IMG/VR virus record: IMGVR_UViG_2737471834_000009
Length of the DNA: 33,255 nt
Origin: a virus
Taxonomy: Duplodnaviria; Heunggongvirae; Uroviricota; Caudoviricetes
Reading direction: 5' to 3' (one strand)
The translations under genes and the position numbers were made by a program. Each line of letters opens with the position of its first letter. Position 1 is the first letter of the stretch. The notes beneath the pieces were generated by a model. The model saw nothing but the letters and a program-made list of their open reading frames with translations, did not search any database and was not told the DNA's origin. Below, piece after piece: positions 17,286 through 25,497 of the stretch.

Positions 17286-17361
17286 GGCCCTTTAGCTCAG
17301 TGGTGAGAGCGAGCGACTCATAATCGCCAGGTCGCTGGTTCAAATCCAGCAAGGGCCACCA
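17286..17361 (+). tRNA. tRNA, anticodon CAU (ileX/ileZ-like tRNA-Ile2; tRNA-Met not excluded)
   Basis: Manual cloverleaf: acceptor GGCCCTT/AAGGGCC, anticodon loop CTCATAA, T-loop TTCAAAT, CCA encoded; close to remembered ileX. Confidence 0.8.
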
Positions 17362-17362
17362 A

Positions 17363-17439
17363 CCGCCACTAGCTCATCAGGAAAGAGCGTCAACCCTTTA
17401 AGTTGAGTGTGCGAGGTTCGAGTCCCCGGTGGCGGTCCA
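17363..17439 (+). tRNA. atypical tRNA, anticodon loop CCTTTAA (anticodon UUU, Lys-like, with C at position 33)
   Basis: Manual cloverleaf: acceptor CCGCCAC/GTGGCGG (C1-G72), D-loop with GG, T-loop TTCGAGT, CCA encoded; isotype uncertain. Confidence 0.55.
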
Positions 17440-17441
17440 GT

Positions 17442-17517
<76 letters not shown>

Positions 17518-17520
17518 TAT

Positions 17521-17595
<75 letters not shown>

Positions 17596-17887: not shown

Positions 17888-18103
17888 ATGAAATCCATGG
17901 ACAAAATTTCAACGGGCATTGCCTATGGCACCTCCGCAGGCAGTGCTGGCTACTGGTTTTTACAGTGGCTTGATCAGGTCAGTCCGTCACAGTGGGCTGC
18001 GATTGGTGTGCTGGGGAGTCTGGTTCTGGGCTTCCTGACTTATCTGACAAATCTGTACTTCAAAATCAGAGAAGACAAGCGTAAGGCTGCACGGGGAGAG
18101 TAA
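17888..18103 (+). CDS. class II holin (phage 21 S-type pinholin) with dual-start motif
   Basis: 71-aa product [28 protein letters not shown]...; two TM segments; Met1/Met4 dual start. Confidence 0.9.
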
Positions 18104-18521: not shown

Positions 18522-19055
18522 ATGAACGCAAAAATCAGATACGGCCTGTCGGCTGCCGTTCTGACACTGATTGCCGTCGGTGCGCCCGCGCCTGATATTC
18601 TCGACCAGTTTCTGGATGAAAAAGAGGGTAACCACACAACGGCATACCGCGATGGGTCCGGCATCTGGACCATCTGTCGGGGTGCCACGATGGTGGATGG
18701 AAAACCCGTTTTTCCCGGTATGAAACTGTCGAAGGAAAAATGCGACCAGGTCAACGCCATTGAGCGTGATAAGGCGCTGGCATGGGTGGAGCGCAATATT
18801 AAAGTACCACTGACCGAACCACAAAAAGCGGGTATCGCGTCATTTTGTCCCTATAACATTGGCCCCGGTAAGTGTTTTCCGTCGACGTTTTATAAGCGGC
18901 TGAATGCCGGTGATCGTAAGGGCGCATGCGAGGCGATTCGCTGGTGGATAAAAGATGGTGGGCGCGATTGCCGCATACGTTCAAATAACTGCTATGGACA
19001 GGTTATTCGTCGTGACCAGGAAAGCGCATTAGCCTGTTGGGGGATAGATCAGTGA
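18522..19055 (+). CDS. SAR endolysin (lysozyme, phage 21 R / P1 Lyz type)
   Basis: N-terminal signal-anchor-release segment ([17 protein letters not shown]) and lysozyme catalytic region (E-x8-D-x5-T: [16 protein letters not shown]). Confidence 0.9.
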
Positions 19056-19519
19056 GCAGAGTCGCCGCGATTATTTATGCTCTGGTTATCTGCATCATCG
19101 TCTGCCTGTCGTGGGCGGTCAATCATTACCGTGATAACGCCATCGCCTACAAAGAACAGCGTGATAAAAAAGTCAGTGAGCTGAAGCTGGCGATCGCCAC
19201 CATCGCTGACATGCAGCAGCGTCAGCGTGATGTTGCTGCGCTCGATGCAAAGTACTCGAGAGAATTAGCCAATGCGCAAGCTGAAAATGAAACTCTGCGC
19301 GCTGATGTTGCCGCTGGCCGTAAGCGCCTGCGGGTCAATGCCAGTTGCTCCGCAGCCGTGCGTGAAGCCACCGGACCCACCAGCGTGGATAATGCAACCA
19401 TCCCCCGACTGGCAGACACCGCTGAACGGGATTATTTCACCCTCAGAGACCGATTGATGACGATGCAGATGCAACTGGAAGGGGCGCAGGAATATATCCG
19501 CACTCAGTGCATTAAGTAG
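19052..19519 (+). CDS. Rz: i-spanin Rz
   Basis: GTG start overlapping the endolysin stop; N-terminal TM followed by coiled-coil; product [31 protein letters not shown]... Confidence 0.85.
19272..19457 (+). CDS. Rz1: o-spanin Rz1 (lipoprotein), embedded in the +1 frame of Rz
   Basis: Lipobox LAVSAC, proline-rich mature region ([21 protein letters not shown]); entirely within Rz. Confidence 0.8.
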
Positions 19520-19561
19520 CCTTTTTATCGTGGTAAACATTTCGCAGGGTATGAGGTATTT

Positions 19562-19912
19562 ATGCCATCACGAATCCCACGCGCCTGCCGTAAGCGTGGA
19601 TGTGCAGGTACAACCACAGACAGTTCTGGTTACTGCGATAAACATCGTGGCGAAGGATGGGTACAGCATCAACGCGGACTGAGCCGCCACCAGCGTGGCT
19701 ATGGCTCGAAATGGGATGCCATACGTGCGCGCATACTGAAGCGTGATAATCATCTGTGTCAGAACTGCCTGCGCAATGGGAGAGCCGTTGAAGCCAGAAC
19801 TGTGGACCACATCATTCCGAAAGCTCATGGTGGCACGGATGCAGACAGTAACCTGCAGAGTCTGTGCTGGCCCTGTCATAAAGCAAAAACAGCGCGCGAA
19901 CGCATCAATTGA
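19562..19912 (+). CDS. HNH endonuclease (terminase-associated)
   Basis: CxxC...H-N-H...CxxCH motifs (CQNCLRNG...DHIIPKAHGGTDADSNLQSLCWPCHKAK); directly upstream of the terminase genes. Confidence 0.85.
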   Translation: MPSRIPRACRKRGCAGTTTDSSGYCDKHRGEGWVQHQRGLSRHQRGYGSKWDAIRARILKRDNHLCQNCLRNGRAVEARTVDHIIPKAHGGTDADSNLQSLCWPCHKAKTARERIN

Positions 19913-20059
19913 TAACAGTTCCCATCTGTAGGGGAGGGGCGGGTCAAATCTCTGCAACCCTGGCTGCTCAGTACCGCCGCCTGACCTTTCCTCACATCGC
20001 CGCAGGTTCGAAAACTTTTTTTGGAAATGTGAACAAACGATTGATAGGTAAAACCGATT

Positions 20060-20542
20060 ATGTCTGGACCCCCGAAAACCCCGCCACGCCTGCATTTGAT
20101 ACGAGGCAACCCCTCAAAGCGCCCCGTTAAAGACTCAAAAAAAACCGCTAAAAAGGATGAAAAAGGTCTCCCTAAAATTCCGCAACATTTAGGGGCGCAG
20201 GGGAAGTACTGGTTCAGGCGAATGGCAGAAGAACTGAATGCGGAAGGGATCATTTCTCAGCTTGATGCGCGTGCACTCGAGTTACTGGTGGAAGCCTACA
20301 CCGAATACCGGCATCACTGCGAAACCCTCGATGTTGAGGGATATACCTACCGCACGGAAACGCAGAACGGTGATGTGCTGATTAAGGCACACCCCGCGGC
20401 GGCAATGAAAGCGGATGCCTGGAAGAGGATCAGGGCGATGCTTGCAGAGTTTGGCATGTCACCGGCAAGCCGGGCTAAAGTAAATATCGCCGGACCTGAT
20501 GATGTCGATCCGCTGGCGGAGCTTTTAAAAGCGAGAGACTGA
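20060..20542 (+). CDS. terminase small subunit (P27/HK97 gp1-like family)
   Basis: 160-aa basic N-terminus; immediately precedes and overlaps the terminase large subunit (TGATG). Confidence 0.75.
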   Translation: MSGPPKTPPRLHLIRGNPSKRPVKDSKKTAKKDEKGLPKIPQHLGAQGKYWFRRMAEELNAEGIISQLDARALELLVEAYTEYRHHCETLDVEGYTYRTETQNGDVLIKAHPAAAMKADAWKRIRAMLAEFGMSPASRAKVNIAGPDDVDPLAELLKARD

Positions 20543-22299
20543 TGGCAAAAGTGGCTGACGGGATCCGCTACGCCGAACGTGTTGTTGCAGGAGAAATTGT
20601 TGCTGGCGAATTTGTCCGTCTGGCCTGCCAGCGTTTTCTTGATGATCTGAAGTACGGCGAGAAGCGGGGGATTTATTTCAGTGAACCCCGTGCGCAGCAC
20701 ATCCTGAATTTCTACAAATTTGTACCCCATGTGAAAGGGGCGCTGGCAGGCCAGCCCATTGAGTTGATGGACTGGCATGTATTTATCCTCATTAATATTT
20801 TTGGTTTTGTCATTCCGCTGGTCAATGAAGAGACCGGGGAAGTTGTCATGCGCAGCGATGGCAGCGGACGTCCGGTGATGGTGCGCCGGTTCCGGACGGC
20901 GTACAACGAAGTCGCCCGTAAAAACGCAAAATCAACTCTGTCATCGGGTATCGGCCTGTATATGACGGGGGCAGATGGTGAAGGCGGAGCTGAGGTGTAT
21001 TCAGCCGCAACCACGCGTGACCAGGCCAGAATCGTGTTTGAAGACGCCAAAAATATGGTCAGAAAAGCCCGGTCGACACTCGGGCGGTTGTTTGATTTCA
21101 ACAAGCTGGCGATTTACCAGGAGCAGAGCGCATCAAAATTTGAACCGCTTTCTTCGGATGCAAACAACCTGGATGGTCTGAACATCCACTGCGCCATTAT
21201 TGATGAGCTGCATGCACATAAAACCCGTGACGTGTGGGACGTTCTGGAAACGGCAACCGGTGCTCGTCTGCAGTCCCTTTTATTTGGTATCACCACGGCA
21301 GGGTTTAACAAGGAAGGGATTTGTTACGAGCAGCGTGATTACGCCATCAAGGTATTGCGTGGCTATAACAGCGACGTGGAGGGCGCGGTAAAAGACGACT
21401 CCTACTTTGCGATTATTTACACCCTCGATGAGGGAGATGATCCGTTTGATGAAACGGTCTGGCAGAAAGCGAATCCCGGCCTGGGCATCTGTAAACGCTG
21501 GGATGATCTGCGTCGCTTGGCGAAAAAAGCGAAAGAACAGGTCTCTGCACGGGTGAATTTTTTTACCAAACACATGAATGTGTGGGTAACAGCAGAGTCT
21601 GCCTGGATGGACATGATTAAGTGGGAGAAGTGCGAATACATTGCCCCACGACATGAGCTGAAAACGTATCCCATGTGGGTCGGCGTTGACCTTGCTCATA
21701 AGATTGATATCTGTGCGGCGGCAAAACTCTGGCGAACGGATAACGGGCATGTTCATGCCGATTTTAAATTCTGGCTCCCGGAAGGACGGCTGGAACGATG
21801 CTCGCGGCAGCAGGCAGAACTTTACCGGAAGTGGGCGGAGATGGATAAGCTGATTCTGACGGATGGTGATGTTATCGATCATGCTCAGATAAAAAGTGAC
21901 TTACTGGAATGGATTGGTGGTGAAAATCTCAGGGAACTGGGATTTGACCCGTGGAGCGCGATGCAGTTCAGCCTGGCACTGGCTGAAGAAGGGATACCGC
22001 TGGTGGAGGTTCCGCAGACGGTTCGCAATCTGTCAGAGGCCATGAAGGAAACGGAATCACTGGTCTATGCCGGGCGTTTCCATCACAGCAATCATCCGGT
22101 CATGAACTGGATGATGTCTAACGTTACGGTAAAACCGGACAAAAACGACAACATCTTCCCGAATAAATCCACGCCTGAAGCCAAAATCGACGGCCCTGTT
22201 GCACTTTTTACGGCCATGAGCCGCTTTCTGGTAAATGGCGGGGACGTGAATGACTTTCTGTCCACGCTTGATCCTGATGAGGACCTGTTAATTCTGTGA
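20542..22299 (+). CDS. terminase large subunit
   Basis: 585-aa ORF at the head of the head-gene module; ATPase and nuclease acidic motifs visible. Confidence 0.9.
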   Translation: MAKVADGIRYAERVVAGEIVAGEFVRLACQRFLDDLKYGEKRGIYFSEPRAQHILNFYKFVPHVKGALAGQPIELMDWHVFILINIFGFVIPLVNEETGEVVMRSDGSGRPVMVRRFRTAYNEVARKNAKSTLSSGIGLYMTGADGEGGAEVYSAATTRDQARIVFEDAKNMVRKARSTLGRLFDFNKLAIYQEQSASKFEPLSSDANNLDGLNIHCAIIDELHAHKTRDVWDVLETATGARLQSLLFGITTAGFNKEGICYEQRDYAIKVLRGYNSDVEGAVKDDSYFAIIYTLDEGDDPFDETVWQKANPGLGICKRWDDLRRLAKKAKEQVSARVNFFTKHMNVWVTAESAWMDMIKWEKCEYIAPRHELKTYPMWVGVDLAHKIDICAAAKLWRTDNGHVHADFKFWLPEGRLERCSRQQAELYRKWAEMDKLILTDGDVIDHAQIKSDLLEWIGGENLRELGFDPWSAMQFSLALAEEGIPLVEVPQTVRNLSEAMKETESLVYAGRFHHSNHPVMNWMMSNVTVKPDKNDNIFPNKSTPEAKIDGPVALFTAMSRFLVNGGDVNDFLSTLDPDEDLLIL

Positions 22300-22316
22300 A
22301 ACAGCTTATTACTGAT

Positions 22317-22457
22317 ATGACCGGGCTGATCGGTTTCGGTCTGCTCACTGCTGGTGTTTATCTGTATGCAGGTCTGCCAGCGTCTCTGATGCTGTCTGGC
22401 TGTTTGTTGCTGCTTTATGCACTGGTGGTGTCCATGAGGAGAAAACATGCTTCTTGA
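22317..22457 (+). CDS. possible 46-aa hydrophobic peptide between terminase and portal
   Basis: Hand-translated MTGLIGFGLLTAGVYLYAGLPASLMLSGCLLLLYALVVSMRRKHAS; overlaps the portal start; no RBS evaluated. Confidence 0.25.
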   Translation: MTGLIGFGLLTAGVYLYAGLPASLMLSGCLLLLYALVVSMRRKHAS

Positions 22458-23673
22458 TGCTCTGTTTCGCAGTGAGCCTCTGGAAAATCCCTCGGTTCCG
22501 GTAACCGGAGAGGCCGCTGAGACGGATAATATTTTTGCCCGGGATGTGTATGTCAGTCCGGAAACATCCATGAAGCTGGCTGCTGTCTATGCCTGTATTT
22601 ATGTTATTTCATCCAGTGTGGCTCAGATGCCCCTGCATGTGATGCGAAAAACGAATGAGCATGTTCAGCCGGCACGCGATCATCCGTTGTTCTGGCTCGT
22701 TCATGATGAACCTAATGCCTGGCAGACCAGCTATAAGTGGCGGGAACTGAAGCAGCGTCATGTGCTGGGGTGGGGCAATGGTTATACGTGGGTAAAACGT
22801 AATCGTCGTGGTGAGGTTACCAGCCTTGAATGCTGTATGCCATGGGAAACCACGTTACTTAACACCGGTGGGCGTCATACTTACGGGGTGTATAACGAAG
22901 AGGGGGCATTTGCGGTAAGTCCGGACGACATGATCCATATCAGGGCGCTGGGAAACAATCAGAAAATGGGACTGAGTCCGATCATGCAGCATGCTGAAAC
23001 CATTGGTATGGGAATGAGTGGTCAGCAGTATACCAGTGCTTTTTTTAACGGTAATGCCCGTCCTGCCGGGATTGTTTCTGTGAAAAATGAACTGAACGAA
23101 CAGAGTTGGAGCAGGCTCAAGAATATGTGGCAGCGGGCGGTGACAGCGCTTCGCAGTCAGGAAAATAAAACCATGCTGCTGCCTGCGCAACTGGATTACC
23201 GTGCCCTGACAGTTTCTCCGGTGGATGCTCAGATCATTGATATGACCAAGCTGAACCGGTCGATGATTGCCGGAATTTTTAATGTCCCGGCGCACATGAT
23301 TAATGACCTGGAAAAAGCCACATTTTCGAATATTACACAGCAGGCGATTCAGTTTGTTCGCTACACGATGATGCCCTGGGTTGCGAACTGGGAGCAGGAG
23401 CTTAACCGTCGCCTGTTTACCCGCACAGAACGGGCTGCCGGGTATTACGTTCGTTTCAACCTTACAGGATTGCTCCGCGGGACTCCGCAGGAGCGTGCGC
23501 AGTTTTATCACTTTGCCATTACAGATGGCTGGATGAGCCGGAATGAAGCGAGGGCATTTGAGGACATGAACCCGGTTGATGGTCTGGATGAAATGCTGGT
23601 CAGCGTAAATGCAGCAAATCCGTTGAATGATTTTAAAGATACGAAAGGCAAAGAGGAAAAGAACGATGAATGA
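22447..23673 (+). CDS. portal protein (HK97 family)
   Basis: 408-aa ORF following the terminase, followed by prohead protease and major capsid. Confidence 0.9.
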   Translation: MLLDALFRSEPLENPSVPVTGEAAETDNIFARDVYVSPETSMKLAAVYACIYVISSSVAQMPLHVMRKTNEHVQPARDHPLFWLVHDEPNAWQTSYKWRELKQRHVLGWGNGYTWVKRNRRGEVTSLECCMPWETTLLNTGGRHTYGVYNEEGAFAVSPDDMIHIRALGNNQKMGLSPIMQHAETIGMGMSGQQYTSAFFNGNARPAGIVSVKNELNEQSWSRLKNMWQRAVTALRSQENKTMLLPAQLDYRALTVSPVDAQIIDMTKLNRSMIAGIFNVPAHMINDLEKATFSNITQQAIQFVRYTMMPWVANWEQELNRRLFTRTERAAGYYVRFNLTGLLRGTPQERAQFYHFAITDGWMSRNEARAFEDMNPVDGLDEMLVSVNAANPLNDFKDTKGKEEKNDE

Positions 23674-24265
23674 CCGTGAAACGCGCTGTTACAGCGGGGA
23701 AGTGCGGGCAGAACAATATGATAATGCCCCGACTCATATTTTGGGGTATGGCTCGGTATTTAACAGTCGTTCAGAACCTCTGTGGGGATTTCGTGAAATC
23801 ATCAAGCCGGGGGCTTTTGACGACGTGCTGAATGATGATGTACGTGGATTGTTTAATCATGATCCTAATTTCATTCTCGGACGAAGTTCTGCCGGCACGT
23901 TGTCATTATCAGTGGATGAACGTGGTTTGCGTTACGACATTGTTGCACCGGATACGCCGACGATTTGTGACCTGGTGCTGTCACCAATGTTGCGTGGTGA
24001 CATTAATCAGTCCTCGTTCGCGTTTCGCGTCGCTCGTGATGGAGAGAGCTGGTATGAAGACGACGAGGGGATTGTTATCCGGGAAATCACGCGCATTTCT
24101 CGTCTGTATGACGTCAGCCCGGTGACATATCCGGCCTATCAGGACGCAGACTCTGGTGTCCGCTCAATGAAAGCCTGGCAGGAAGCGCGGGCGAGTGGTG
24201 CGCTGAAGAAAGCTGTTAACGAACGAATGGCGCGTGAGCGTCTTTTGACCCTTCTTAATGCATAA
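23666..24265 (+). CDS. prohead protease (HK97 family)
   Basis: About 200 aa, start overlapping the portal stop; position between portal and capsid. Confidence 0.85.
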   Translation: MNDRETRCYSGEVRAEQYDNAPTHILGYGSVFNSRSEPLWGFREIIKPGAFDDVLNDDVRGLFNHDPNFILGRSSAGTLSLSVDERGLRYDIVAPDTPTICDLVLSPMLRGDINQSSFAFRVARDGESWYEDDEGIVIREITRISRLYDVSPVTYPAYQDADSGVRSMKAWQEARASGALKKAVNERMARERLLTLLNA

Positions 24266-24279
24266 GGATACTACTGACG

Positions 24280-25497
24280 ATGAAACTTCATGAGATGAAG
24301 CAAAAACGAAACACCATTGCAAAGGATATGCGTGCACTGCATGAAAAAATTGGTGATAACGCATGGACTGATGAGCAACGGGTAGAGTGGAACAGGGCGA
24401 AAGCTGAGCTGGATGCGCTGGATGAGCAAATCGCCCGTGAAGAAGAGTTGCGCCGTCAGGATCAGGAATATGTGGATGAGTCCGGGCCGGAAGAGCGCCA
24501 GAATAATGAGGCGGAGAACGGGAAAAAGGCGGTGGAAGAGAAGCGCGCTGCGGCATTTAACCGTTTTCTGCGTGCCGGATTTGCAGAACTGAATGCTGAA
24601 GAGCGTAATCTGATGCGTGAACTGCGGGCTCAGAGTGTAACAACGGATTCTCAGGGCGGATATACGGTGCCCACGCAGATGCGTAACAAAATCATTGACA
24701 CCATGAAGGCTTATGGCGGGATTGCCAGTGTGGCGCAACTTCTGACCACATCAACCGGGCAGGATATCACCTGGTCAACGTCTGATGGCACGACTGAAGA
24801 GGGCGAACTGCTGGCGGAAAATACAGCCGCAACGGAACAGGATGTGACGTTCGGGACCGCTATTCTGGGGGCTAAAAAGCTGTCATCAAAAATAATTCGT
24901 GTGTCCAATGAGCTGCTCCAGGACAGTGGGGTGGATATTGAATCTTATCTGGCAAACCGTATTGCCCAGCGTATTGGTCGTGGAGAGGCAAAATATCTGG
25001 TTCAGGGGACCGGAACGGGATCACCGTTACAGCCAAAAGGGCTTGCAGCGTCGGTGACGGGAACCATCCAGACTGCAGCCTCTGCCGCTTTCACCTGGAA
25101 AGAAATGAATGCCCTGAAACATGCCATTGATCCGGCATATCGTGGTGGGCCGAAATACCGCTGGGCATTCAATGATGCCACATTGCAGACTATTGAAGAG
25201 ATGGAGGATGGACAGAAACGCCCGTTATGGCTGCCGGATATTGCAGGCGGTACGCCGGCTACTGTGCTGGGGATCCCTTATGTTATTGATCAGGCTATTG
25301 ACGGGATTGGTACCGGGAAAAAATTCATTTTCCTTGGGGATTTCAACCGATTTATCATTCGCCGCGTTACTTATATGGAACTGAAACGTCTGGTTGAGCG
25401 TTATGCTGAGTTTGATCAGGTGGCATTTCTGGCTTTCCATCGTTTTGACTGTGTGCTGGAAGATGTGGCAGCCATCAAGGCGCTCACTGGCAAATAA
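24280..25497 (+). CDS. major capsid protein (HK97 fold) with N-terminal coiled-coil delta domain
   Basis: 405 aa; charged heptad-rich N-terminal 100 aa followed by the capsid body; terminator immediately downstream. Confidence 0.9.
   Translation: MKLHEMKQKRNTIAKDMRALHEKIGDNAWTDEQRVEWNRAKAELDALDEQIAREEELRRQDQEYVDESGPEERQNNEAENGKKAVEEKRAAAFNRFLRAGFAELNAEERNLMRELRAQSVTTDSQGGYTVPTQMRNKIIDTMKAYGGIASVAQLLTTSTGQDITWSTSDGTTEEGELLAENTAATEQDVTFGTAILGAKKLSSKIIRVSNELLQDSGVDIESYLANRIAQRIGRGEAKYLVQGTGTGSPLQPKGLAASVTGTIQTAASAAFTWKEMNALKHAIDPAYRGGPKYRWAFNDATLQTIEEMEDGQKRPLWLPDIAGGTPATVLGIPYVIDQAIDGIGTGKKFIFLGDFNRFIIRRVTYMELKRLVERYAEFDQVAFLAFHRFDCVLEDVAAIKALTGK

Follow-up and report, generated by a model that had tools for sequence, protein, structure and literature searches.

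The window, by which we mean the whole 33,255-nucleotide stretch of tailed-phage DNA that was analysed, carries an HNH endonuclease gene that closes the late region, following a holin-endolysin-Rz cassette and directly preceding the terminase genes. A preliminary description of this DNA had placed the HNH gene next to the terminase across a gap of 147 bp, and these coordinates hold when checked against the ORF, stop and start positions and against Pfam matches to HNH and Terminase_4. Portal, protease and capsid genes lie further downstream, and no packaging or head ORF of the window is truncated, as judged from the translations and Pfam matches:

19562-19912, plus strand: HNH endonuclease gene, an intact ORF of 116 aa with a TGA stop at 19910-19912
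19913-20059, plus strand: intergenic putative cos region, 147 bp, between the HNH TGA and the ATG at 20060
20060-20542, plus strand: small terminase (TerS), P27 family (Pfam Terminase_4, E 1.1e-25; PHROG 83, E 2.5e-55)
20542-22299, plus strand: large terminase (TerL), ATPase and RNase-H-like nuclease (Pfam TerL_ATPase, PF03354, and TerL_nuclease, PF20441)
22447-23673, plus strand: portal (Pfam Phage_portal, E 2.1e-100)
23627-24265, plus strand: S78 prohead protease (Pfam Peptidase_S78, E 1.9e-40)
24280-25497, plus strand: HK97-fold major capsid protein (Pfam Phage_capsid, E 2.1e-70)

The HNH-terminase pairing had been described as typical of HK97-type packaging, in which the HNH protein stimulates cos cleavage. 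The characterised relatives bear this out, and HK97 gp74, an HNH protein, is reported to stimulate cos cleavage (PMC9410871; PMC13595911). HK97 and the window have in common the gene order HNH, cos, TerS, TerL, portal, protease and HK97-fold capsid. The features of an HK97-type module that are present are the upstream HNH gene, a TerL related to gp2, the downstream portal, protease and capsid genes, and a cos homologue in the gap; the one that is absent is a TerS homologous to HK97 gp1, the window TerS being P27-type. Because the window TerS shows no detectable similarity to gp1, the module is, on sequence grounds, HK97-like in TerL, HNH, cos core and head genes and P27-type in TerS. The same module was found in 1055 of 5426 complete E. 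coli genomes (~19%), and the HNH-cos-terminase arrangement as such is ordinary and already known.

The HNH protein and its proposed part in packaging

Read off its translation, the HNH protein has an N-terminal zinc ribbon (C9-x4-C14 ... C25-x2-H28) and an HNH core made up of D82-H83, N97 and H106, with C66-x2-C69 and C102-x2-C105. It matched Pfam HNH (PF01844, E 1.9e-16), HNH_5 and PHROG 144 HNH (E 1.2e-41), was 91% identical to L34 of phiP27, and aligned to the HNH nickase of Bacillus phage Gamma (N.phiGamma) with 37% identity over 120 aa (E 1e-15). A full-length match to the HNH endonuclease of PDB entry 5h0m covered residues 1-114 (E 2.4e-15). N.phiGamma and GVE2 HNHE have the same domain layout as the window protein, an N-terminal zinc ribbon followed by a C-terminal HNH with [CxxC]2, and this layout together with full-length homology makes the window protein a probable member of Group 1 of the zinc-ribbon HNH nicking endonucleases as defined by Xu and Gupta 2013 (PMC3592412). 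HK97 gp74 is homologous in the HNH core (37% over 70 aa) and differs in being without the extra N-terminal zinc ribbon.

Several near-identical phage records label the HNH gene 'homing endonuclease', and HK97 gp74 and the lactococcal HrdP cleave non-specifically in vitro (PMC3592412), both of which would suit a free-standing selfish homing endonuclease beside an ordinary gap, with the packaging signals elsewhere or packaging by headful. We regard this as scarcely credible, given that the HNH-gap-TerS-TerL synteny and the gap motif are conserved across phyla, that relatives have defined cohesive ends at the homologous spot, and that gp74 is reported to be essential in vivo for HK97 packaging (PMC13595911). 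The window TerL belongs to the same Pfam families as its HK97 counterpart, gp2, and aligned to it with 28.5% identity over 466 aa (E 8e-42). Its only sequence relative in the PDB is a 'Terminase large subunit' chain, 6z6d (E 2.5e-36), which we identify as the cos-type HK97 TerL, and which also speaks against a homing enzyme set in a headful system. The characterised relatives HK97 and SfI, along with phiP27 by record annotation, are cos phages.

Predicted cleavage core and cohesive ends

Alignment of the gap with the ends of related phages placed two features on a C-rich core:

19973-19984, plus strand: predicted cleavage core AC|CGCCGCCTGA, from gap-free alignment with the relatives' ends
19975-19984, plus strand: predicted 10-nt 3' cohesive end CGCCGCCTGA, by homology, about 30 bp downstream of the G-rich segment

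The annotated cos-site of phiP27, CGCCCGCCCC, aligns column for column with the window core; this evidence is a GenBank feature (AJ298298, 21806-21815) located in the homologous gap. Comparison with the HK97 cos sequence, which the preliminary description had put forward as a check, agreed with it: the annotated cos site of HK75 and the end of the HK97 record, CGCCGCCAAA, fall without gaps on the column of the window core. The SfI end, TGCCCGCCCC, aligns to that column without gaps as well. The 10-nt ends of SfI were determined by run-off sequencing of virion DNA (PMC3636060), and HK97 has 10-nt 3' overhangs (PMC11331095; PMC9410871). The record end of Geobacillus virus E2 was tried as a further comparison and proved uninformative, as that record is not linearised at cos. 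The HK633 record ends in ...GAC with most of the overhang absent, as a recessed bottom strand could explain; its junction (ACT) is odd, so it was not relied on.

From these alignments we infer a bottom-strand nick opposite 19974|19975 and a top-strand nick after 19984. Every cut position predicted for the window prophage, like the polarity of the end, is transferred from its relatives by homology. Positions -13..-4 carried 1.73 bits per column among 8 non-redundant phage lineages, and the last three overhang bases and the first bases past the overhang were not conserved in the alignment of phage cos regions. Because these bases are unconserved, the predicted top-strand nick could be off by at least one base. 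The annotated ends of D3 and phi105 are 9 nt and 7 nt long, starting one base after AC|C. Bacillus phages of the Wbeta type that share the core are reported, from PhageTerm, to have 5' rather than 3' overhangs (PMC8878798), which, if right, would make the strand assignment of the HNH nick wrong for those phages. The record of phage Gamma ends in G-box-N24-AC|CGCCGCC, as in the window; the systems of the Gamma-group nickases differ in their Gram-positive hosts and in a 9-nt overhang, reported as 5' in one paper (PMC8878798).

Zinc-ribbon HNH enzymes encoded next to terminases nick CG^GT / AC^CG (PMC3592412), and a CG^GT site on the bottom strand at 19973-19976 sits at the dinucleotide step of the predicted bottom-strand nick. 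By analogy with those enzymes, the window HNH protein would make the bottom-strand nick at 5'-CG^GT-3'. This agreement between a predicted bottom-strand nick and the specificity measured for related HNH nickases is a lead that is only mildly new.

The G-rich string quoted in the preliminary description is present in the gap (GTAGGGGAGGGGCGGGTC at 19928-19945), and the proposal made there that the gap holds the cohesive ends stands in its location, the relatives' ends aligning within it, and fails in taking the G-rich segment for the end. This segment is the most conspicuous and best conserved motif of the gap, but in HK97, HK75, SfI and phiP27 the C-rich core, where the mapped or annotated ends lie, is reached 27 nt after the homologous G-box stops (-37 to -10), and the Gamma and D3 records terminate at that core rather than at the box. 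It is thus very improbable that the DNA is cut, or the cohesive end formed, within 19928-19945 itself. This E. coli-type prophage almost certainly has its packaging cut within the gap 19913-20059, most likely about 30 bp downstream of the G-rich stretch.

A conserved box at fixed distance from the core

Upstream of the core lie a box of conserved sequence and a spacer of conserved length:

19931-19948, plus strand: conserved G-rich box (G-box) GGGGAGGGGCGGGTCAAA, -54..-37 from the predicted top-strand cut, overlapping 19928-19945
19949-19972, plus strand: spacer with a constant length of 24 nt and a variable sequence, bounded by TCAAA on its left and the AC of the predicted nick site on its right

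Across 8 non-redundant phage lineages the G-box carried 1.73 bits per column compared to 0.86 in the adjoining spacer, and the spacer was exactly 24 nt long, gap-free, in 11 of 11 aligned phage cos regions and in phage Gamma. The box-spacer-core layout was seen in phages of Escherichia, Shigella, Klebsiella, Morganella, Pseudomonas and Bacillus. In Pseudomonas phage D3 and Bacillus phage Gamma, whose records both end at the C-rich core, the box stands at equal spacing, the D3 box being at the matching distance (35 nt) from the record end when its 9-nt end is allowed for. HK97 likewise has the G-box, the 24-nt spacer and GAC|CGCCGCC, and differs in the last 3 nt of the overhang and in the entire TerS-side sequence. 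A fixed 24-bp phasing despite unrelated spacer sequence argues for a protein site on duplex DNA that is tied to cleavage, and we infer that cos function requires the G-box as a subsite, recognised by TerL and/or the HNH protein.

The composite motif GGGTCRAA-N24-ACYGCC occurred once in the window against 0.01 occurrences expected from shuffles, and its place is kept in related loci, so its presence in the gap is beyond chance. Its position was retained in 80 of the 80 related IMG/VR loci examined, exactly in 66 and with one TCAAA substitution in 14, indicating either that the TCAAA part is not strictly required or that those 14 prophages are decaying. When genomes were scanned for the motif, an HNH ORF lay just upstream in 40 among the 120 matches listed, and these loci had TerS and TerL downstream on the same strand wherever the locus extended far enough. 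The 40 HNH-linked matches span Gamma-, Beta- and Alphaproteobacteria and Bacillota and were conserved at positions outside the pattern too; the other 80 listed were without such conservation.

Substitutions in TCAAA among some relatives, and the extreme abundance of the module in E. coli chromosomes, where many such prophages are cryptic, could also mean that the window is a relic, a defective prophage whose cos is no longer used. We think this unlikely, since the packaging and head ORFs are full length, the cos motifs of the window are the exact consensus, and the region is shared at 94-97.5% identity with records deposited under phage names, which we assume to have been isolated as virions. 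Near-identical deposited phage records are vB_EcoM-606R7, with 97.5% DNA identity over HNH-cos-TerS, and phi467; a cos site is annotated in neither of them, nor in the record of mEp235.

The G-box might instead have nothing to do with packaging and serve to control transcription or translation of the terminase operon, or form a G-quadruplex, or a hairpin with the C-rich core. It does lie on the late transcript upstream of terS, and it pairs with the C-rich core in the minimum-energy fold of the gap. That fold is no better than those of shuffled sequence (z = 0.5), on which ground a structured single-strand element was rejected, and the 24-bp phasing from box to nick is constant across lineages with unrelated spacers, making a role outside packaging decidedly unlikely. 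A G-quadruplex was rejected by inspection, as just three runs of three or more Gs are present and their pattern changes from lineage to lineage. Searches for a sigma-70 promoter or a terminator in 19913-20059 gave no match, and Rfam gave none of note, a single SAM_alpha hit at E = 1 inside terS being noise. An IHF site was considered for GTCAAATCTCTG and dropped, its fit by eye to WATCAANNNNTTR being poor. The only repeat in the gap is an 11-nt inverted pair of 82% identity (19987-19997/20027-20037), for which there is no conservation argument.

The small-terminase side and a model for packaging

Sequence downstream of the core sorts with the small terminase:

19994-20022, plus strand: TerS-type-specific block ACATCGCCGCAGGTTCGAAAACTTTTTTT, +10..+38, predicted small-terminase recognition site (cosB-like)

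The window TerS matched Pfam PF05119 (Terminase_4) at 90.3 bits, compared to a cut-off of 24.7, over profile positions 2-97 of 98, and RefSeq annotates its gene as 'phage terminase small subunit P27 family'. BLASTP gave no alignment between this protein and HK97 gp1, which falls in PHROG 5601 with no Pfam match, whereas the window TerS falls in Terminase_4/PHROG 83; a sequence search of the PDB found no solved relative of the window TerS. The block at 19994-20022 is common to mEp235, Klebsiella phage 1 LV-2017 and Morganella phage IME1369_02, whose TerS proteins are 57-75% identical to that of the window, and a different block takes its place in phiP27 and SfI, whose TerS proteins are 18-24% identical. 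The minimal site of HK97 TerS lies at +15..+29 and contains an A-tract (PMC11331095). The block thus tracks TerS type, which is consistent with the HK97 site and predicts that the window TerS would bind there; because the window TerS and gp1 belong to different families, this assignment is an analogy backed by covariation.

The two halves of the gap have separate closest relatives. In the Stx2e phage phiP27 the left half, up to the cleavage core, is nearly identical and TerS belongs to the same Pfam family, whereas TerS is 18% and TerL 37.5% identical, its overhang reads CGCCCGCCCC where the window has CGCCGCCTGA, and the downstream blocks of the two are unrelated. mEp235 (Hendrixvirinae, Nochtlivirus) agrees nearly exactly in the downstream block, and its TerS and TerL are 74% and 87% identical to those of the window, whereas its HNH protein is 74% identical and its G-box and spacer belong to a different subtype. 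In natural recombinants a left half of phiP27 type meets a right half of mEp235 type, the junction falling in the final 2-3 nt of the overhang, and by these alignments the predicted cohesive end is a recombination joint between the HNH and terminase modules.

We judge it highly probable that a lambdoid prophage, whose head and packaging module is of HK97/P27 type, has its cos in the gap 19913-20059, and we read this cos as laid out in four parts: the G-box at 19931-19948, the 24-bp spacer, the core AC|CGCCGCCTGA with staggered nicks, and the TerS-type block at 19994-20022. The architecture, its conservation, the fixed spacing, the alignment to the relatives' ends and the covariation of block and TerS were all observed. 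For the steps of packaging we propose that TerS would bind the downstream block on concatemeric DNA and position or arrest TerL there, that TerL and the HNH protein would jointly make both nicks, and that packaging would then proceed rightwards into the procapsid up to the next cos.

This layout resembles the three-part logic of lambda cos (cosQ-cosN-cosB), in which a core cut by staggered nicks is flanked upstream by one element and downstream by the region that binds the small terminase. By its position, the G-box may be compared with cosQ. Lambda differs in its 12-nt 5' overhangs and in having no HNH protein (PMC9410871), and its terminase names, gpNu1/gpA, are unlike the HK97 set (PMC13595911). 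The window is not of the lambda terminase type, its Pfam terminase matches being Terminase_4 and TerL_ATPase/TerL_nuclease only and the mapped ends of its relatives being 10-nt 3'.

A broader reading, which we offer tentatively and with rather less than even confidence, is that every HNH-dependent cos site has the G-box as a phase-locked subsite, where HNH would make the bottom-strand CG^GT nick and TerL the top-strand nick. The box would then stand exactly 24 bp upstream of AC|CG, putting about three helical turns between box and nick, in phages from Enterobacterales to Pseudomonas, Alphaproteobacteria and Bacillus, and TerL would cut 9-10 nt from the HNH nick. A link between box-N24-AC|CG and the HNH nick was not found in the open-access papers searched; key older papers fall outside that scope, and the link may already be published there. 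A literature match for the string GGCGGGTCAAA returned only unrelated primer sequences. If true, the universal-subsite reading would give a sequence-level division of labour between the two enzymes, a matter treated as open in the HK97 literature consulted, and cos ends would be predictable from prophage sequence alone.

For the window itself the wider import is small, as it is a standard lambdoid prophage element with an HK97/P27-type cos packaging module. Base-level predictions of its virion ends help annotation, the choice of linear genome start, and the assessment of specialised versus generalised transduction potential. Beyond the window, a G-box-N24-AC|CGCC signature located between HNH and terS genes could serve to find cos in many unannotated prophages; it also points to an assignment of the two nicks, one to HNH and one to TerL, that can be tested.

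Packaging genes and class of the element

The window is a lambdoid prophage in which an HNH gene sits beside the terminase genes across a 147-bp gap, with every one of these features lying where the preliminary description had placed it.

17286-17595, four tRNAs (Met-CAT, Lys-TTT, Thr-TGT, Gly-TCC), directly upstream of the lysis cassette
17888-18103, holin
between holin and endolysin, YdfR-like ORF
18522-19055, endolysin
19037-19519, Rz, with an embedded Rz1-like ORF
19272-19457, embedded ORF in the +1 frame within Rz, containing the lipoprotein-signal-like LAVSACGS
19562-19912, HNH ORF
19913-20059, HNH-TerS gap, 147 bp
20060-20542, TerS
20542-22299, TerL
22296-22457, hydrophobic 53-aa ORF between TerL and portal
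downstream of TerL, portal, S78 protease and HK97-fold capsid, followed by the tail genes, one ORF of 1082 aa among them

By its sequence and its location inside Rz, the ORF at 19272-19457 looks like a typical Rz1 o-spanin. The deposited phage record vB_EcoM-606R7 is 97.5% identical to the element at the DNA level over HNH-cos-TerS, and only Thr and Gly tRNAs are annotated in it at the position of the four-tRNA cluster. Of the ORFs matched to 22296-22457 by position only, the phiP27 one is labeled 'putative integral membrane protein' and the 606R7 one 'head-tail joining protein W', a label that appears mistaken. Compared at the Rz-HNH junction (~19519-19562), several close relatives (ON470586, ON470621, ON470612 and others) align to the query region as two separate segments and are ~0.8-1.1 kb longer there than the window; their additional genes carry the labels 'virulence determinant', DUF4347 or hypothetical. 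Because the HNH-TerS gap is contiguous in these relatives, the cargo insertion site seemingly lies upstream of HNH.

The HNH protein matches Pfam HNH (E 1.9e-16), and its translation contains an N-terminal zinc ribbon (C9xxxxC14, C25xxH28) and a C-terminal core (D82-H83, N97, H106 and two CxxC pairs). Its identity is 91% with phiP27 L34, 74-75% with the HNH proteins of mEp235 and SfI, and 37% with both HK97 gp74 (core only) and the Bacillus phage Gamma HNH nickase (full length); its best solved relative is an 'HNH endonuclease' chain, PDB 5h0m. TerS belongs to the P27 family (Terminase_4) and shares 74% identity with mEp235 TerS but only 18% with phiP27 TerS. Sequence comparison detected no similarity between it and the HK97 TerS, gp1, which has no Pfam family and falls in a different PHROG. 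TerL carries TerL_ATPase and TerL_nuclease domains and shares 87% identity with mEp235 TerL and 28.5% with HK97 gp2. Its sole solved sequence relative is a 'Terminase large subunit' chain, 6z6d, which we take to be HK97 TerL.

The element is an HK97-type HNH-assisted cos packaging system with a P27-family TerS, closely matched by deposited phage records such as 606R7 and by phiP27, a relative with an annotated cos; lambda-type packaging was rejected. The finding first described is correct and ordinary.

Position and anatomy of the predicted cos site

Megablast of the region recovered the phiP27 record, which annotates a 10-nt 'cos-site' (CGCCCGCCCC, 21806-21815) between its HNH and TerS genes, in the gap homologous to that of the window; its aligned counterpart in the window is CGCCGCCTGA at 19975-19984. 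Further reference points, each independent of phiP27, support this placement. The HK97 and HK022 records stop at the same base (HK97 ends ...GAC CGCCGCCAAA). The HK75 record also stops there, its last 10 nt annotated 'cos site', and the SfI record ends in TGCCCGCCCC, the 10-nt stretch absent from run-off reads of SfI virion DNA (PMC3636060). HK97 ends have been reported as 10-nt 3' overhangs (PMC9410871; PMC11331095). PMC9410871 is inconsistent on this point, giving HK97 a 10-nt 3' overhang in the Figure 1 legend and, in the Discussion, 10-nt 5' for lambda and 12-nt 3' for HK97; the Discussion lengths appear swapped. We adopted 10-nt 3' for HK97, in line with PMC11331095 and the HK75 annotation. 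When 11 cos regions were anchored on the top-strand cut, predicted after 19984 in the window, they aligned with zero gaps from -70 to +50. The cos site very probably lies in the gap at 19913-20059, and its exact end is likely 19975-19984 with 3' polarity.

Information content was calculated over eight non-redundant lineages (HK97, SfI, phiP27, the window, mEp235, Klebsiella 1 LV-2017, Morganella IME1369_02 and Klebsiella phi12.4). Most of it resides in two blocks, listed here with the bottom-strand step at the predicted nick.

19931-19948 (-54..-37), G-rich box (G-box), 1.73 bits per column
19972-19981 (-13..-4), nick block TACCGCCGCC, 1.73 bits per column
19973-19976, bottom strand, CGGT, coinciding with the predicted nick

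The spacer from TCAAA to AC is a constant 24 nt in these lineages yet holds just 0.86 bits per column. Sequence varies over the final three bases of the overhang and at the start of the left end. The preliminary description had pointed to a G-rich string in the gap (GTAGGGGAGGGGCGGGTC, found at 19928-19945) and taken the gap as the likely site of the cohesive ends; the placement of cos in the gap is supported, and the segment, real and conserved, is a flanking box rather than the end itself. Fixed phasing to the nick, at about three helical turns, argues that the G-box is recognized by a protein on duplex DNA, and we somewhat favor its being a required cos subsite. A single copy of the composite motif is present in the window, where 0.01 would be expected. 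Promoter and terminator scans of the gap at 19913-20059 gave no match, Rfam gave no family of note, and the fold of the gap was not significant.

Candidate roles of TerS, TerL and HNH

Downstream of the cut, a block at 19994-20022 (+10..+38; ACATCGCCGCAGGTTCGAAAACTTTTTTT) is near-identical in four phages whose TerS proteins are mutually 57-75% identical, and a different block, A[CT]ACCCGCGAAA..., takes its place in phiP27 and SfI, which form a second TerS group. In HK97, the minimal site for TerS lies past the cut at +15..+29, with an A-tract adjoining it (PMC11331095). This position, together with covariation with TerS, makes 19994-20022 the best candidate TerS site. The G-box and nick block are common to all lineages, including HK97 with its unrelated TerS. 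Since TerL and HNH are the proteins shared by all lineages, one or both presumably read these two blocks.

Xu and Gupta showed strand-specific nicking at CG^GT (AC^CG) by zinc-ribbon HNH enzymes encoded beside terminase genes, N.phiGamma and that of GVE2 among them, and did not connect this specificity to cos (PMC3592412); we found no statement in the open-access papers searched linking it to the predicted cos nick. With a 3' overhang starting after AC, the bottom-strand break in the window falls at 5'-...GGCGGCG^GTAC-3', a CG^GT step. The conserved AC|CG fits this nickase specificity, as does the AC|TG of SfI, which is reported as a star-site type. Both the break position and the conserved AC|CG support the literature model that divides the two nicks between HNH and TerL, one strand each (PMC11331095). 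In the window, HNH would nick the bottom strand at CG^GT and TerL the opposite strand. However, Wbeta-group ends were reported as 5' overhangs by PhageTerm (PMC8878798), the D3 and phi105 end annotations begin one base later, and gp74 and HrdP seem non-specific in vitro (PMC3592412 and further literature). We propose the HNH nick at this step only tentatively.

Exchange at the cohesive end and breadth of the layout

In the window, the phiP27-like part comprises HNH and the left half of the gap, and the mEp235-like part comprises the right half, TerS and TerL; the recombination joint is at the cohesive end, within 19973-19993. The box is present at unchanged spacing in all 80 IMG/VR loci that encode this HNH, 14 of which have single substitutions in TCAAA. 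Among the other 66 loci, typed by left and right half, 55 have the window combination with overhang CGCCGCCTGA; eight join a phiP27-type left to an mEp235-type right with the switch in the last 2-3 nt of the overhang (CGCCCGCCAA or CGCCCGCCTA), two are phiP27-type on both sides and one is SfI-type on both. That modules are exchanged at the cohesive end is consistent with a functional boundary at this point.

The same layout and spacing end the records of Pseudomonas phage D3 (...GGGGTGGGGCGGGTCAAA-N24-CC GCGCCCCCA) and Bacillus phage Gamma (...GGGTAGGGGCGGGTCGAAA-N24-AC CGCCGCCCC), whereas phi105 differs in having a C-rich box and a 23-nt spacer. A scan for GGGGNGGGTCRAA-N24-ACCGCC, with one genome per species, returned at least 120 sites. 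Among the 120 matches listed, 40 are preceded closely by a same-strand HNH ORF and, wherever the locus is long enough, followed by TerS and/or TerL, as judged by small HMMs built from sequences in hand, which may miss distant true positives. These 40 span Gamma-, Beta- and Alphaproteobacteria and Bacillota (Pseudomonas, Proteus, Providencia, Xenorhabdus, Citrobacter, Klebsiella, Kushneria, Salinicola, Neptuniibacter, Xanthomonas, a Burkholderiales MAG, Sphingomonas, Novosphingobium, Martelella, Bacillus and an Oscillospiraceae MAG). They show extra conservation at positions the pattern leaves unspecified, which is absent from the other 80 listed sites; those, mostly in high-GC MAGs, are probably chance matches. 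The module is present in 1055 of 5426 complete E. coli genomes. The G-box-N24-AC|CGCC layout may offer a general signature for calling cos sites.
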